Source: an archaeon
Lineage (GTDB): Archaea; Iainarchaeota; Iainarchaeia; Iainarchaeales; 1-14-0-10-31-34
DNA length: 32,000 nucleotides
Reading direction: 5' to 3'
Assembly (NCBI GenBank): GCA_024277355.1
Contig: JAJRVL010000004.1
Coordinates: forward strand, 180,001 to 212,000
Part shown: positions 9,561 through 30,183 of the stretch, piece after piece
Layout: each line of letters begins with the position of its first letter
Numbering within the stretch: position 1 is the first letter of the stretch
Translations under genes and position numbers: made by a program
The notes under the pieces: model-generated
Seen by the model: only the letters and a program-made list of their open reading frames with translations
The model's database searches: none
What the model was told of the DNA's origin: nothing

Positions 9561-9833
9561 TTATTTTGACATTAAAATTTCAATTGAAGAAACTTTTAAT
9601 GCTCCGCCTTCATCTGAAGAAATTTCTTCGGTTGAAGTGGAAATATTACTTATTTTCAAATCCTTAATGAATTTGTTTTTTACAATTTCTGAAACATCTA
9701 CTGCACGAGAAATTGCTTTTACTCTTGCTTTAATGCTTATTTCTTTTGCGCCTGCGTTAACTTGTGTTACAACAGCTAACACATAAGCCATTGTTCCTTT
9801 TTTTCCTATAAAAATTGTGTTTTCTTCTGCCAT
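9561..9833 (-). CDS. albA: Chromatin/RNA-binding protein Alba
   Basis: From ATG 9833: MAEENTIFIGKKGTMAYVLAVVTQVNAGAKEISIKARVKAISRAVDVSEIVKNKF. This matches the Alba signature IFIGKK...YVLA..TQ....E..IKARG.AISRAVDV.EI..N.F. Confidence 0.85.
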   Translation of the reverse strand: MAEENTIFIGKKGTMAYVLAVVTQVNAGAKEISIKARVKAISRAVDVSEIVKNKFIKDLKISNISTSTEEISSDEGGALKVSSIEILMSK

Positions 9834-9917
9834 ACTGTTTGCACCTCCAAATGCAATTGTGAATAAACTGTTATTGCTAAACATAATATTGTAAGTTTAG
9901 GTTTATTAATATTTTGA

Positions 9918-23763: not shown

Positions 23764-23886
23764 ATGAAACCTAAAAAAGAAGGATTTCCATTAAAAAAAA
23801 AGAAGAAAAAGAAAAAAATTAAAATTCCTTTTGAAGATTTAACAAGCCTTCCTTCAGAAAACGAATATGGAAATGAATTTCATTAA
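23764..23886 (+). CDS. Possible 40-aa lysine-rich peptide (weak)
   Basis: Hand translation gives MKPKKEGFPLKKKKKKKKIKIPFEDLTSLPSENEYGNEFH. Its stop overlaps the stop of the convergent ORF 23883..24530. It could be a chance ORF in A-rich DNA. Confidence 0.2.
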   Translation: MKPKKEGFPLKKKKKKKKIKIPFEDLTSLPSENEYGNEFH

Positions 23887-24530
23887 TATAAGTCAATTAA
23901 AGGCATGAAAATAAATTTTCCGTTTTTTACTCCTAATAACAAAATATTTGAAGGCATAATATCTATTTTTTCATAAACTTGTTTTGCTGCCTGTTCAAGT
24001 TGTTTTTTAGTAAATCCGTGTTTTTTGCTTAATTTTCTGAAAAATTGCCGGCCTTTTGTTGTAGGAGAAGCTTCAATAATATGGGGTTTAAGTTTAATAT
24101 CTCCTAAAATTTCATTTAAATTAGGTTTATTTGTTTTAGCCATTGCAACTAAATTATTTCCTAAATCATAAGCAATTGGTTCACGTAAAACAAAATTCAA
24201 ATCCTTTGGTATTCCTTTTTTTTTAATTAGTTCATTATAATTTCTAACTCTAAGCTGAATTTCTCTTAACTCTGTATTTGCTCCCCTCATGTCAGCATGC
24301 ATTTTTTTTATTACTAATTTTACTCCAGGATAATTCCTTGAAATATTCATTTGCCTTATTCTTCCTCCCCAAACATAAGTATCTTTTGACGGAACTTTAA
24401 AAATATTTTTTCTGGCAAAATCATTTTGTCTTGGATCAATGTTTTTCATTCTTCCTAAAGACTTATTAATTTTAGTTGAAACTTTTTTTAATCTTGAAAC
24501 AAGTTTTTTAGGCAAAGGTTTTACAGGCAT
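23883..24530 (-). CDS. Kinase-like paralog 1 (215 aa) with basic MPVKPLPKKLVSRLKK N-terminus
   Basis: Conserved blocks: GGRIRQMNISRNYPGVKLVIKKMH, REPIAYDLGNNLVAMAKTNKPNLNEILG, IDIMPSNILLLGVKNGKFIFMPLIDLY. Confidence 0.65.
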   Translation of the reverse strand: MPVKPLPKKLVSRLKKVSTKINKSLGRMKNIDPRQNDFARKNIFKVPSKDTYVWGGRIRQMNISRNYPGVKLVIKKMHADMRGANTELREIQLRVRNYNELIKKKGIPKDLNFVLREPIAYDLGNNLVAMAKTNKPNLNEILGDIKLKPHIIEASPTTKGRQFFRKLSKKHGFTKKQLEQAAKQVYEKIDIMPSNILLLGVKNGKFIFMPLIDLY

Positions 24531-24565
24531 AATAAAATTAGTTTTTTGTTATTTAAAATACTGGT

Positions 24566-25207
24566 TTAAAACAAGTCAATTAAAGGCATAAAAACAAGTT
24601 TTCCTTTATGCATTCCAACAAATTCCATTTGATCCGGAAGAATTCTAAGTAAATTGCATGCTTTGCCTAACTCTAAATAATATTTTACTCGAGGAATTTT
24701 ATTTTTCTTTAATGTTTCAGTTAAAGCTTTTCCTCTTAAACCTTTAATTTCCTGCATCGCAACAAGATTTTCTGCAAGCAAATGAACATCAGGCATTACC
24801 ACTTCATGATTTTTTGCTGAAACAGTTTTATTGTATTCCTGAACTTTTCCTTTTATTCTTTGAATTGTTTTTAATGCAGTTGAACTGTGAATTCTTTTCA
24901 AAATTACTCTTACTCCTGGAAAATTTCTTGAAACATTTAATTCTCTGACTCTTCCGCCGACAAATCTTGAATCAATTTTTCCAGGTTTAGTAAAAAAAGC
25001 TTTTAGTCCTTCTTTTTTTAATTCTTTAATAACATTTTTTTCTAAAATACTCATTTTTTTTCTATGATCAACATTTTCAAGTCTTTCAAAAGATTTAATT
25101 AAATCTTTTTTTCCATGCCTTTCAAGTCTTTTAGCTGTAGTTAATCTTAATCTGTTAACTAGTTTTGTCGGCAAAGGCTTGAAAAAAGGATTAAGTTTTT
25201 TTGGCAT
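24566..25207 (-). CDS. Kinase-like paralog 2 (213 aa), divergent copy lacking the D-x4-N element
   Basis: Blocks: KPLPTKLVNRLRL, GGRVRELNVSRNFPGVRVILKRIH, LVAMQEIKG, RILPDQMEFVGMHKGKLVFMPLIDLF. Confidence 0.65.
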   Translation of the reverse strand: MPKKLNPFFKPLPTKLVNRLRLTTAKRLERHGKKDLIKSFERLENVDHRKKMSILEKNVIKELKKEGLKAFFTKPGKIDSRFVGGRVRELNVSRNFPGVRVILKRIHSSTALKTIQRIKGKVQEYNKTVSAKNHEVVMPDVHLLAENLVAMQEIKGLRGKALTETLKKNKIPRVKYYLELGKACNLLRILPDQMEFVGMHKGKLVFMPLIDLF

Positions 25208-25239
25208 AAATACAATTGTAGTTTTCTTTCTTTAAAATA

Positions 25240-25893
25240 TTATTGCAAATCAACTAAAGGCATAAAAACAAACTTTCCGTTTTTTACGCCTAATAAAAGA
25301 ATGTTTCTGGTTGGAAAATCTATATATTTTGTTTTTGTTCTTCTGTAAAATCTTCCAAACGCTTCATTTAACTGTGTTTTAGTTACTCTGTGTTTTTTCT
25401 TTAATTTTCTGAAAAACTCCTGTCCTCTGATTGTTTTTCCATTAGAACCTAAAATTTCATCTAAATTAGGTTTATTTGTTTTAGCCATTGCAACTAAACC
25501 ATTGCCTAAAGCATAAGCAATAGGTTCACGTAAAACATAATTTTCTGGTTCAAAAGACTTGTTATGACTTTTAACTATTTTTTTTATTTCATTTATTTCT
25601 TTAATTGAATTAGGTGCAACATGAATTTTTTTTATTACTAACTTTATTCCAGGAAACTGTTTTGAAACATCCATCTCCCTTACTCTTCCTCCTGCACTGC
25701 TTATATTTTTTGGATTTAAAGCTAAAAGTTGTTTTATTTCAGGGTCATTTCTTCTATGGTCAATGTTTTTCATTGAACCTAAATTACCTGAAATTTCTTC
25801 TTTTCCTTGTTTAAATCTTTTTCTTTGTTCCCGTTTATCAGTAATTTTTTTTAATCTTGAAACAAGTTTTTTAGGCAGAGGTTTTGTCGGCAT
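25240..25893 (-). CDS. Kinase-like paralog 3 (217 aa from MPTKPLPKK)
   Basis: Start moved to ATG 25893 to match the paralog N-termini. Blocks: GGRVREMDVSKQFPGIKLVIKKIH, REPIAYALGNGLVAMAKTNKPNLDEILG, IDFPTRNILLLGVKNGKFVFMPLVDLQ. Confidence 0.65.
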   Translation of the reverse strand: MPTKPLPKKLVSRLKKITDKREQRKRFKQGKEEISGNLGSMKNIDHRRNDPEIKQLLALNPKNISSAGGRVREMDVSKQFPGIKLVIKKIHVAPNSIKEINEIKKIVKSHNKSFEPENYVLREPIAYALGNGLVAMAKTNKPNLDEILGSNGKTIRGQEFFRKLKKKHRVTKTQLNEAFGRFYRRTKTKYIDFPTRNILLLGVKNGKFVFMPLVDLQ

Positions 25894-25960
25894 AATATAA
25901 TTAGATTTTTGTTGTTTAAAAAACAAATGTTTTTGAATATTTTTTGGTTTTTTGTCTTAG

Positions 25961-26912: not shown

Positions 26913-28919
26913 ATGGAACTAGTTTTTTATTCTATTATTGCAGGAATAATTGCATTGCTTTATACTGTAATATTAAACAACAAAATTAATTCTCATGGAG
27001 TCGGAAACGACAAAATGAAAGAAATAAGTTTAGCAATAAGAGAAGGAGCAATGGCTTTTCTTAAAAGAGAATATAAAAGTTTAGCATTTTTTATTGCAAT
27101 TGTATTTATTATATTAACAATTTTAAGCCAGGTTTATCCTCAGGCAATGAACTTTTTTGTAGGAGTATCTTTTATTGTTGGTGCTTTATGTTCAGCTTTA
27201 GCCGGATGGTTAGGCATGAGTACAGCAACAAACTCTAATGTTAGAACTACTCAGGCAGCAACAACTTCAATGAGTGAAGCATTAAAAATTGCTTTTTCTT
27301 CAGGAGCCGTAATGGGTTTAAGTGTAGTAGGATTAGGAATTTTAGGAATAAGTGTATTATATTACATTTACTCTGGAATAATGAATTTTCCAAATCCAAC
27401 TGTTTTATTATTTGGATTTAGTTTTGGTGCTTCAAGCATTGCATTATTTGCAAGAGTTGGAGGCGGAATTTACACTAAAGCTGCAGATGTAGGAGCAGAT
27501 TTAGTTGGAAAAGTTGAAGCAGGAATTCCAGAAGACGATCCAAGAAATCCAGCAGTAATAGCAGACAATGTAGGAGACAATGTAGGAGATGTTGCCGGAA
27601 TGGGAGCAGACTTATTTGAAAGTTATGTTGGAAGTATTATTGCTTCAATGGCTTTAGGTTTAATTGCATTTGAAGTAATTGGAATGGAATTTCCTTTAGT
27701 TTTAGCAGCAGCAGGAATACTTGCTTCAATTATTGGAATAGTTTATGTTAATTTAATGAGCACAGGTTCAGGAGTTCATTCAGCTTTAAGAAACGGAACT
27801 CTTGTTGCAGCAGGAATAATGACTGTTTTTGCTTTTTTGTTAACAAACTATTTTGGGTTGCCAATTGAAATATTTTATTCAATGATAATTGGATTAATTG
27901 TAGGGTTATTAATTGGTTTTTTAACTGAATATTACACTGCACATGAACACAAACCAACACAAAAAGTAAGCCAGTCATCTGAAACAGGAGCAGCAACAAA
28001 TATTATTGCAGGATTATCTTTAGGTTATGTTTCAACTGCCTTGCCTGTATTAGTTTTAGTAATAGGAATATATTTTGCTTATGCTTTTGGAGGCTTATAT
28101 GGAATTGGAATTGCCGCAGTTGGAATGCTTTCAACTTTAGGAATAACTTTAGCTGTAGATGCATATGGCCCAGTAGCAGACAACGCAGGTGGAATAGCAG
28201 AAATGGCAGGTTTAGATAAAAAAGTAAGAGAAGTAACTGATTCATTAGATGCAGCAGGAAACACAACTGCAGCAATAGGAAAAGGATTTGCAATTGGTTC
28301 AGCTGCATTAACTGCTTTAGCTTTTTTTGCAACTTTTAGCCAGACAGCAGATTTAACTGTAATAAACATTTTAGATACAAATGTAATGGTTGGATTATTG
28401 CTTGGAGCAATGCTTCCGTTTTTGTTTAGTTCTTTTGCAATGACTGCAGTAGGAGAAGCAGCAGAAGCAATGATAGCAGAAGTAAGAAGACAATTCAAAG
28501 AAATAAAAGGATTAATGGAAGGAAAAGCAAAACCAGACTATAAAAGATGCGTTGAAATTTCAACTGATGCAGCATTAAAAAAAATGGTTATGCCTGGCTT
28601 ACTAGCTATTTTATCACCTATTGTTGTTGGCTTAATTTTAGGGCCAGAAGGATTAGGCGGATTATTAGCTGGCGCATTAGTGTCAGGAGTAATGATGGCA
28701 ATAATGATGGCTAATGCAGGCGGAGCATGGGATAACGCAAAAAAATACATTGAATTAGGACATCATGGAGGTAAAGGTTCTCCTGCACATAAAGCAGCAG
28801 TAACAGGAGACACAGTAGGAGACCCATTTAAAGATACAGCAGGACCTTCATTAAACATTCTAATAAAATTAATGAGCATTACAGCATTAATTTTTGCTTC
28901 AATTTTAGTGGTTTTATAA
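26913..28919 (+). CDS. hppA: Membrane-bound K+-insensitive/sensitive H+(Na+)-translocating pyrophosphatase
   Basis: Start taken at ATG 26913 (MELVFYSII), preceded by GGAG. Motifs: [68 protein letters not shown]. There are about 16 TM segments. Confidence 0.9.
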
Positions 28920-28940
28920 ACCACTAATTTTCTTTTTTTT
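28908..28940 (+). terminator. Hairpin plus T-run at the end of hppA
   Basis: GTGGTT-TTATA-AACCAC (28908-28924) spans the stop codon and is followed by TAATTTTCTTTTTTTT. Confidence 0.45.
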
Positions 28941-28949
28941 CTAATTTTA

Positions 28950-29132
28950 TTATTTATTTTTATTTCTTTTTTTACGGGATAATAAAGCAGAATCAATTTT
29001 AACGCCCTTGTGCATTAATTCAGTAATAAGTGAATTAGACAAAGGTTTTTTTTGATGAAATAAAGTTGAATTATGAAGTTTTCCTGAATTATTTTTAGGA
29101 TTAATAATTTTTTTTCGGTTTAATCTGGGCAT
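28950..29132 (-). CDS. Small basic protein S60 (MPRLNRKK...), shortest member of the small basic-protein (DRR) family; it lacks the DRR tripeptide itself
   Basis: 60 aa with an MP start. The C-terminus [16 protein letters not shown] aligns with the C-termini of the two upstream paralogs. Confidence 0.4.
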
Positions 29133-29136
29133 AAAA

Positions 29137-29532
29137 TCACTTTTTCCTTCTTTCTTTTTTTACTGCAGTTTTTCTTCTGTCAGTTTTAATCTGAACATGA
29201 TTAACAGCAGCATAAGATTTAATTTTTTTTTCATTACTTTTAGTTTTTATTTTTCCTACTGCTTCAGGGAAACCATATCTTATTTTTTCACTTAATTTAT
29301 TTTTAGTTATTTGTCTTTTGTTTTGATAACCTAAATCTTTGTAATGTCTGGTTTTTAATTCTTGTTTTGTTCCATTAACTTCAACAATTCGTCTTTTTTC
29401 TTGTGCAACAAAAGAGCTTGTTCTTCTGTCAGCTAAACCGGTTCTTCTGTCTTGTCCTATTCTTCTGTCTAAACCAAGAAATCTTCCTGTTTTAGTTTTT
29501 CTTAATTTGTTAATTAATTTTTTAACTGGCAT
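29137..29532 (-). CDS. Small basic protein S131 with four Asp-Arg-Arg elements
   Basis: 131 aa: MPVKKLINKLRKTKTGRFLGLDRRIGQDRRTGLADRRTS...IKTDRRKTAVKKERRKK. Confidence 0.55.
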   Translation of the reverse strand: MPVKKLINKLRKTKTGRFLGLDRRIGQDRRTGLADRRTSSFVAQEKRRIVEVNGTKQELKTRHYKDLGYQNKRQITKNKLSEKIRYGFPEAVGKIKTKSNEKKIKSYAAVNHVQIKTDRRKTAVKKERRKK

Positions 29533-29578
29533 TAAATCACAAATAAAATACAGAAATAGAAGTTAATAAAGTTAAGCT

Positions 29579-29938
29579 TTATTTTTTTCTTCTGTTTTTT
29601 TTAACAGAAGTATTTCTTCTGTCAATTGAAACATTAACATCAGATTTCATTAAAGCTGAACTGTCTTTAAAATTAACTACAGTAGTTTGTTTGTGTTCTT
29701 CAGTTTTAATTAATTTAGGTTTATTTGATTTATCATAAAATTTTCTTTTTTTATGAGAACTTAAATCAGTATAATCTAAAGTAATATCTCCTGTTTTAGT
29801 TTTATTTAAAATTTTTTTAGCAGGAAAAAGATTTTTTCTTCTTTCTTCAGGATTAGTTCTTTCAACAAAAAGTTTTGTGTTTTTTCTTCTGTTGAATTTT
29901 TTGAATTTTCTTCTAATCCAATTAAATAGTTTAGGCAT
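29579..29938 (-). CDS. Small basic protein S119 of the DRR family
   Basis: Start placed at ATG 29938 (MPKLFNWIRRKFKKF) by analogy with the paralogs. The C-terminus is SIDRRNTSVKKNRRKK. The longer track ORF would overlap the 30007..30183 gene. Confidence 0.5.
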   Translation of the reverse strand: MPKLFNWIRRKFKKFNRRKNTKLFVERTNPEERRKNLFPAKKILNKTKTGDITLDYTDLSSHKKRKFYDKSNKPKLIKTEEHKQTTVVNFKDSSALMKSDVNVSIDRRNTSVKKNRRKK

Positions 29939-30006
29939 AATAAAAAAATATAAAGGATTTAAATTAATAAAACTTTGTAAAAAAAATAGAAAGTGAAGGA
30001 AATCCT

Positions 30007-30183
30007 TCACAAGTCATAAGGTTTTAAGGTTTTTCTTCCATTGTCTGAGCATCTTTTGATTGCTGAATCAATGTTTGCCATAACACTGGCACTTAATGCA
30101 TCATAAGTATCAGAACCCATCTGCATATTTTTTGATTTAACATAATCTCCGACTTTACTTCTAACAACTAACATATCTGACAT
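30007..30183 (-). CDS. DUF1931 histone-fold-like small protein
   Basis: Hand translation (58 aa, below the track cutoff): MSDMLVVRSKVGDYVKSKNMQMGSDTYDALSASVMANIDSAIKRCSDNGRKTLKPYDL. The LVV.SKV...K...R...DA...L...V...I..A...A...GRKT+...D pattern fits DUF1931. GGGGG lies about 10 nt upstream of the ATG. Confidence 0.6.
   Translation of the reverse strand: MSDMLVVRSKVGDYVKSKNMQMGSDTYDALSASVMANIDSAIKRCSDNGRKTLKPYDL

Follow-up and report, generated by a model that had tools for sequence, protein, structure and literature searches.

Probable Asp-Arg-Arg paralogues of a DPANN archaeon and the likely codon-usage origin of their repeated 10-mer

Introduction

Why should the same ten nucleotides occur five times within a locus of three small open reading frames (ORFs), and are these ORFs genes at all? 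The question is raised by positions 28950-29938 of a 32-kb stretch of an archaeal contig (JAJRVL010000004.1, assembly GCA_024277355.1), hereafter called the window, where consecutive ORFs of 119, 131 and 60 codons (S119, S131 and S60) lie on the minus strand, all three with a Met-Pro start. The repeated 10-mer spells Asp-Arg-Arg (DRR), and the initial annotation had proposed a trio of related small basic proteins with a common tail, in which the identical codons reflected either recent amplification of a short unit or a constraint on the DNA or RNA itself. The answer that on balance appears the better one is that S131 and S119 are real, anciently duplicated genes of a DRR family, that the 10-mer is an echo of codon usage, that S60 is unrelated, and that the two proteins may act as a clamp on nucleic acid.

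The DRR proteins and their family

S131 has an isoelectric point (pI) of 11.1 and is 32% Lys+Arg; taken together with S119 and the orthologues described below the range is pI 10.5-11.1 and 26-32% Lys+Arg, with a grand average of hydropathy (GRAVY) of about -1.2, and the net charge of the window DRR proteins is +25 to +30. The three closely spaced DRR units first noticed in S131 are indeed there, at residues 22, 28 and 35 with spacings of 6 and 7, and a fourth stands at residue 118, whilst the N-terminal part of S119 carries the triads NRR, ERR and ERR. The two proteins have in common the tail (I/V)-x-x-D-R-R-x-T-x-V-K-K-x-R-R-K-K. When (D/E/N)RR triads are counted S131 has five and S119 has four, numbers that were equalled in none of 20,000 residue shuffles of each protein. 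Across every ORF of 100 codons or more, the genome has just 16 DRR triads, and S131 by itself has a quarter of that number.

A BLASTP alignment of S131 with S119 spans the full length of both (E 5e-5, 30% identity), and the two are very probably coding paralogues, so that of the proposed trio this pair stands. Relatives are found in four other genomes of the genus and in one metagenome contig: G005 has P0002, of 141 aa, immediately adjoining hppA; G002 has a row made up of P0004 (172 aa, S119 type, with an MPKLL start), a DUF1931 gene, P0003 (153 aa, S131 type) and a further small ORF; and on the metagenome contig L055 pyrD and DUF1931 are followed by a gene of the G001 type, one of the S131 type and then hppA. 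P0002, P0003 and the L055 gene are orthologues of the S131 type and P0004 is an orthologue of the S119 type. The duplication is considered ancient. Two further relatives are a 254-aa protein of G004, which occupies the same slot and aligns collinearly with a C-terminal extension, and a 149-aa protein of G001 with a DRR pair and the tail.

The family alignment allows a number of conserved elements to be picked out. These are a Met-Pro-x-Lys N-terminus, an aromatic residue 1-4 positions ahead of the first (D/N)RR, one or two additional (D/E)RR triads after it, an invariant Phe three residues past the last N-terminal triad, an (R/L)DY element, and the tail V-x-V-(S/K)-(T/I)-D-R-R...R-R-K...K-K, in which D118, R119 and R120 of S131 are invariant. 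The DRR family can be defined by a collinear Met-Pro start, an N-terminal (D/E/N)RR cluster ending x-x-x-Phe, and a V-x-V-x-(T/I)-D-R-R...R-R-K...K tail. S131, S119, P0002, P0003 and P0004 all have this layout, and it is seen by eye, rather than by statistics, in the G004 protein (hhalign E 0.078, not significant) and the G001 protein (hhalign E 0.0013). The search for homologues with the C-terminal motif that had been recommended at the outset was thus productive, with the homologues coming from genomes of the same genus and from L055.

It could be argued that such frames are open by chance, in DNA rich in purines and in A+T, and are never translated, as their composition is of low complexity and no database annotation goes beyond 'hypothetical protein', the public name of the orthologues, whose records are labelled Candidatus Micrarchaeota archaeon or archaeon. 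For S131 and S119 this is highly improbable. Full-length frames are kept in at least five other genomes, the L055 contig included (G005, G002, G004, G001 and L055), with start, motifs and stop in register. The orthologues of G005 and G002 differ with a ratio of nonsynonymous to synonymous substitution rates (dN/dS) of 0.39, and gene prediction at four public sources has the orthologues as genes.

The family appears to be very small, fast-evolving and lineage-specific, being restricted to a single genus of Micrarchaeota-labelled DPANN archaea. When all of 1.84 billion representative proteins were searched exhaustively with the profile, the six input sequences were the only matches, and word-indexed protein searches with S131 alone returned only the query. 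A scan across the order matched 4 of 151 genomes, and the matches were confined to genomes of the same genus and one marginal match. Neither Pfam, NCBIfam nor PHROGs gave anything above noise for S131, S119, S60 or the orthologues, with no Pfam domain at E <= 1.

The L055 contig deserves a separate remark, as its S131-type gene (L055:1765-2228; ENA ERZ27293400 / JGI 3300004210) is predicted only as a 91-aa fragment, P0005. The Met-Pro-Leu-Lys-Lys start and the DRR cluster are parted by an apparent 1-nt shift within a T/A homopolymer run near the 5' end, which accounts for the short prediction, and the shift is the same in both public assemblies.

The repeated 10-mer

On the plus strand the window has exactly five copies of the 10-mer TTCTTCTGTC, at 29172-29181, 29421-29430, 29442-29451, 29460-29469 and 29614-29623, just as had been reported. 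The expectation is 0.10 copies per window, and none of 100 dinucleotide-preserving shuffles attained five. Read on the minus strand all five copies encode Asp-Arg-Arg followed by A, with four of them in S131 and one in S119 (residue 106). Whether the 10-mer is enriched elsewhere had been left to be checked, and the result is twofold: with 22 copies in the 1.13 Mb of the source genome it is not a common genome word, nor is it specific to the S131/S119 locus, as 17 copies lie elsewhere and most of these encode Thr-Glu-Glu in ordinary unrelated genes.

The spelling itself is what the codon usage of the genome predicts. The source genome has 28% G+C, and among its 883 ORFs with 150 codons or more the Asp codon GAC makes up 30% overall vs 216 of 269 cases (80%) where the next codon is AGA, which in turn has an 80% share of Arg codons. 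In other cases of DRR in the genome the spelling is GACAGAAGA in 7 of 10, and each residue type found directly after a triad (K, T, N, I and R) has an A-initial codon. Therefore, the identical 10-mer is very probably a by-product of codon usage, namely the preferred spelling of Asp-Arg-Arg and an A-initial codon at this base composition. The orthologues, whose genomes have about 35% G+C, keep the peptide triads and spell them GACAGGAGA, GATAGAAGA, GACAGGCGA and GACAGGCGT, and selection would act on the amino-acid triads.

The alternative is that TTCTTCTGTC is functional itself, as a purine-rich element of RNA or DNA, or that it marks recent DNA amplification or slippage. Five exact copies within 450 nt vs the 0.1 expected, and an A after every one of the five, speak for this, but the genome's codon and codon-context bias leads to the same spelling, and the codons vary across orthologues in which the peptide is constant. 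No DNA likeness beyond the 10-mer was found among the three N-terminal units of S131, and Tandem Repeats Finder (TRF) reported no array over them. The DNA repeat D2 pairs the two C-terminal tails (29141-29198 and 29583-29640) at 78% identity over 58 nt, with differences at synonymous sites. A scan of the locus against Rfam gave a single chance-level match, and the 17 copies elsewhere fall mostly in Thr-Glu-Glu codons as described above. As the tails differ synonymously, the units have no further DNA likeness and the orthologues vary their codons, neither of the two explanations first offered, recent amplification and nucleotide-level constraint, survives, and a function or an amplified origin of the 10-mer is considered extremely improbable.

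The S60 frame

The third member of the proposed trio does not belong with the other two. Whilst its position and its Met-Pro start were correctly described, S60 contains no DRR, its tail resembles the motif loosely at best, and hhalign gives it a probability of 0.1% against the family profile. BLASTP finds no likeness between S60 and the small ORF that takes its place in G002, and in 20 related genomes there was no convincing match (best E 0.03). S60 was consequently rejected as a member of the DRR family for want of a DRR, a profile match and relatives, and it is best regarded as an orphan ORF of putative coding status. It starts 4 nt past the stop codon of S131, therefore co-translation with S131 is possible; it is also quite possible that S60 is a chance ORF that is not translated.

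A perfect 8-bp inverted repeat (AGTGGTTT / AAACCACT) with a 3-nt loop lies at 28907-28925, across the stop codon of hppA, where the hppA and S60 ORFs converge. A terminator-like hairpin that works in both directions is one possibility.

Gene neighbourhood

The coordinates of the locus and of other features discussed here are collected in Table 1. The gene upstream of S119 encodes a DUF1931-type histone-fold-like protein, which matches PDB 9qt0 ('DUF1931 domain-containing protein') over residues 3-57 at E 1.1e-8 and 9f2c at E 4e-8, and the bacterial histones 8fvx and 8cmp at E 0.007-0.008; the Pfam model PF09123 remained under threshold. A DUF1931-type gene is present in 28 of 41 relatives, and the arrangement pyrD / DUF1931 / DRR genes / hppA recurs in most relatives. 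It is apparent that the slot between the DUF1931 gene and hppA is variable within the genus: in G000, G002, G004 and L055 it is filled by DRR genes, which are there linked to the DUF1931 gene, in G003 by a kinase-like gene, and in G005 by other basic genes and a transposase.

The word TTTATTAA precedes both S119 and S131 and may represent an archaeal TATA box, in positions that fit archaeal promoters with short or no leaders, although as the word is common at 28% G+C this is weak evidence.

Table 1. Positions of the ORFs, their motifs and other features (window coordinates unless a contig is named)
Feature	Position	Strand	Remarks
S119	29579..29938	minus	119 aa; MPKLF start; C-terminal end IDRRNTSVKKNRRKK; probable paralogue, S119 type
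C-terminal basic tail of S119	29582..29638	minus	V-x-V-S-I-DRR...NRRKK; one 10-mer, 29614-29623
S131	29137..29532	minus	131 aa; MPVKK start; C-terminal end TDRRKTAVKKERRKK; S131 type
N-terminal triple DRR cluster of S131	29422..29469	minus	residues 22-37, DRR-x3-DRR-x4-DRR; three of the five 10-mers
C-terminal basic tail of S131	29140..29196	minus	V-x-I-K-T-DRR...ERRKK; one 10-mer, 29172-29181
S60	28950..29132	minus	60 aa, basic orphan ORF
TTTATTAA, possible archaeal TATA box	29964..29971	minus	3' end 26 nt ahead of S119 start codon
TTTATTAA, possible archaeal TATA box	29563..29570	minus	3' end 31 nt ahead of S131 start codon
DUF1931-type histone-fold-like protein	30007..30183	minus	58 aa; upstream neighbour of S119; PDB matches
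Alba-family gene	9561-9884	minus	PF01918, E 1e-15
Canonical histone gene	C2:324479-324670
G096 small ORF	L041:1393-1581		62 aa, P0007, adjoins scpA
G159 small ORF	L046:1351-1572		74 aa, convergent with radA; Y-K-G-P-E-R-R
G158 small ORF	L045:1420-1806		Y-K-G-P-E-R-R
G103 small ORF	L049:1471-1923		(D/E)RR clusters at both ends

Predicted structure and possible function

The AlphaFold2 model of S131 is of low confidence (pLDDT, the predicted local distance difference test score, 58) and that of P0002 is moderate (pLDDT 67). In the latter a core of a four-stranded sheet and a helix is predicted for residues 41-130 (pLDDT 73-80), with the DRR region at about 53. Foldseek searches with the S131 and P0002 models gave no match at E <= 0.001, a result that the low confidence of the models makes uninformative. 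The layout of the proteins would be a basic Met-Pro segment, a cluster of two to three (D/E/N)-R-R triads with aromatics on either side, a weakly predicted four-stranded beta core and the conserved tail.

Nucleic-acid binding is the most likely function that can be suggested for S131 and S119, because of their charge of +25 to +30, the poly-Lys tail and the guanine and phosphate chemistry of which DRR is capable, and the odds that the two proteins do bind nucleic acid are put at about even. In such a mechanism the two Arg-rich clusters would form a bipartite clamp on RNA or DNA, with pairs of Arg contacting phosphates and the Hoogsteen edges of guanines, and with the Asp of the triads reading or capping in the way modelled on the one solved DRR motif. 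As the genes occupy a variable slot adjoining a histone-fold-like gene, an accessory role in chromatin or as an RNA chaperone would be the most likely one.

A number of points weigh against this interpretation. High basicity is by itself no proof of nucleic-acid binding, and the structure models are of low confidence with no known fold matched. Comparison of the window copies with their orthologues gives dN/dS values of about 0.5-1 that are saturated, so that constraint outside the motifs seems weak. The linkage to DUF1931 is not independent evidence, because it is seen within one genus only, and as the genome has both a canonical histone and Alba it has no need of the DRR proteins for bulk chromatin.

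The DRR proteins can be compared with archaeal chromatin proteins (Alba, histones, Cren7/Sul7d and MC1) and the bacterial H1-like proteins Hc1/Hc2, to which they are alike in size, in very high pI and in the likely binding of a polyanion, and their genes adjoin that of a histone-fold-like DUF1931 protein. They differ in that none of these was matched in sequence or fold, and in a distribution limited to one genus; profiles of nucleoid protein families (histone PF00808, Alba PF01918, DUF1931 PF09123 and others) matched none of S131, S119, S60 or the orthologues. A second comparison is with the arginine-rich motif (ARM) peptides that bind RNA (N of phages lambda and P22, HIV Rev, Tat), a class defined by function and not by homology. 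The likeness lies in short Arg-rich stretches broken by acidic residues, for example T-D-R-R-R-R-E-R-R-K in P0002, that would fold only when bound to structured RNA, and the difference is that the DRR proteins have two clusters with a core of roughly 80 residues between them.

Comparison with CleD

To our knowledge the only DRR motif that has been characterised and solved is the c-di-GMP-binding peptide of Caulobacter CleD; literature searches on DRR-type words returned nothing relevant. The core of the Cle family is a tandem [Y/F]xGP[D/E][R/K]R (PMC5677366), and in the complex of the CleD peptide the contacts to c-di-GMP are made by DRR-x11-(R/K)RxxD with flanking aromatics, in which guanine N1 accepts or donates a hydrogen bond with the Asp of DRR, the Hoogsteen edges of guanines are bound by the two Arg, and the bases are stacked upon by tyrosines (PMC7382256). 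The Cle-type arginine-rich region (ARR) is appended to a CheY-like receiver domain in 91% of members.

CleD and the window proteins are alike in a short linear Asp-Arg-Arg motif that has aromatics nearby and is unstructured alone, and the S131 type shows a partial likeness in the DRR-x11-RR spacing. It is therefore conceivable that the DRR clusters are linear sites for a small guanine-containing ligand, such as c-di-GMP or another guanine nucleotide, and that the proteins are sensors or sponges of a second messenger. Exactly DRR-x11-RR is found in S131, P0003 and L055 (P0002 keeps the spacing but has RQ, and in S119-type proteins the spacing is 14-19 residues), S131-type proteins have Phe or Tyr ahead of the first triad and the invariant Phe past the last, and small DRR proteins of another family of the same order (G158 and G159) begin with Y-K-G-P-E-R-R. 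Despite this, a small ligand is considered quite unlikely. Neither a GGDEF (PF00990) nor a DAC (PF02457, c-di-AMP) cyclase was found in the 96%-complete source genome, where controls responded. The window proteins lack the Gly-Pro of the Cle unit [Y/F]-x-G-P-[D/E]-[R/K]-R, with F-L-G-L-D-R-R in S131, F-K-K-F-N-R-R in S119 and later units without an aromatic, and the closing Asp of DRR-x11-(R/K)RxxD is missing in all family proteins examined. There is no receiver domain, no statistical sequence similarity to CleD, and sequence searches of the PDB with the family proteins gave zero matches. The window proteins also carry a second DRR cluster. The C-terminal KKK tail and a net charge of +25 to +30 would fit a polyanionic ligand better than a dinucleotide.

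S131 and S119 thus appear to lie outside the Cle family, and what can be carried over from the comparison is chemistry, in that DRR can read guanine and phosphate. A broader suggestion is that the DRR triads and flanking aromatics form a linear, CleD-like guanine-reading module, for guanine-rich RNA or DNA or for a guanine nucleotide obtained from, or sensed in, a host or neighbour, in archaea without c-di-GMP synthesis; this is speculative and unlikely.

Kinase-like neighbours

Four kinase-like paralogues occur in the genome, in the window at 23883-25926 on the minus strand and outside it at C2:230685-231284. They have a Met-Pro-(V/T/K)-Lys-Pro start and an N-I-D-H-R-(R/K) element.

Apart from a clamp on nucleic acid, the DRR proteins might be substrates or partners of these minimal kinase-like proteins, given that R-R-x-S/T would be a basophilic site and that a Met-Pro-x-Lys N-terminus is common to both. 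RRTS, RRKT and RRNT do follow the triads, G000, G002 and G005 have kinase-like genes at a distance of 3-10 kb, and the kinase-like gene of G003 fills the exact DRR slot between DUF1931 and hppA. The first 10 residues also align (hhalign E 0.0036), but the likeness goes no further than those 10 residues, at 9% probability, and the comparison of whole proteins is not significant; an N-terminal module common to the two groups was set aside on these grounds. Furthermore, the kinase-like family is far wider, being found in 13 of 21 genomes, G004 has a DRR gene and no kinase-like match, the linkage is confined to one genus, and in P0002 the Ser/Thr that comes after the triads already varies. This relationship is accordingly rated as very unlikely, and binding of nucleic acid is still the function preferred for S131 and S119.

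A looser class of DRR mini-proteins

Beyond the genus the picture is less clear. When the DNA of 215 genomes of the phylum was searched for the pattern DRR-x(3-7)-DRR there were 12 matches vs 3 for the reversed control. Several of the matches are small ORFs from another family of the order (G096, G159, G158 and G103; Table 1), a looser class with the two-cluster layout, (D/E)RR clusters at both ends, and a Met-Pro start in three of the four. The Y-K-G-P-E-R-R of G158 and G159 exactly reproduces a single unit of the Cle motif that binds c-di-GMP, and a word-indexed search with the 62-aa G096 protein returned the query only. A DNA-metabolism neighbourhood for these other mini-proteins was considered and rejected, as ScpA, RadA and Hjc are found once each amid unrelated genes, which is suggestive but too few and too mixed.

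The source genome itself holds a further DRR-type frame, at C10:58481-58939 on the minus strand (L054:682-1140) and directly upstream of a LemA-like gene. Its triple unit D-T-R-I-G-S-Q-N-R-R-K-N-S-P-D-R-R matches S131 at 11 of 18 positions, and a second NRR/DRR cluster stands at the C-terminus. The frame has no start codon, and a 38-codon Met-Pro ORF lies just upstream in another frame, with the shift falling within an A-run; this could be a pseudogene, an assembly error or a programmed shift. None of the links from these ORFs or from the C10 frame to the DRR family is statistically secure.

Implications

Exact short DNA repeats within the genes of genomes of extreme composition can be codon-bias echoes of a peptide motif, and the five copies of TTCTTCTGTC offer a lesson in this respect. 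Lineage-specific small basic proteins are numerous in DPANN archaea, and the DRR family provides what seems to be a clean example, of real genes in which the Asp-Arg-Arg triads are tightly conserved and the rest of the sequence evolves fast. If the triads were a general unit for reading guanine or nucleic acid, the archaeal proteins would be tied to the many unnamed DRR-repeat mini-proteins of bacteria and the DRR motif would gain a function beyond the binding of c-di-GMP, and, should the guanine-reading module be real, the unnamed DRR-repeat mini-proteins of bacteria and DPANN archaea might be one functional class.

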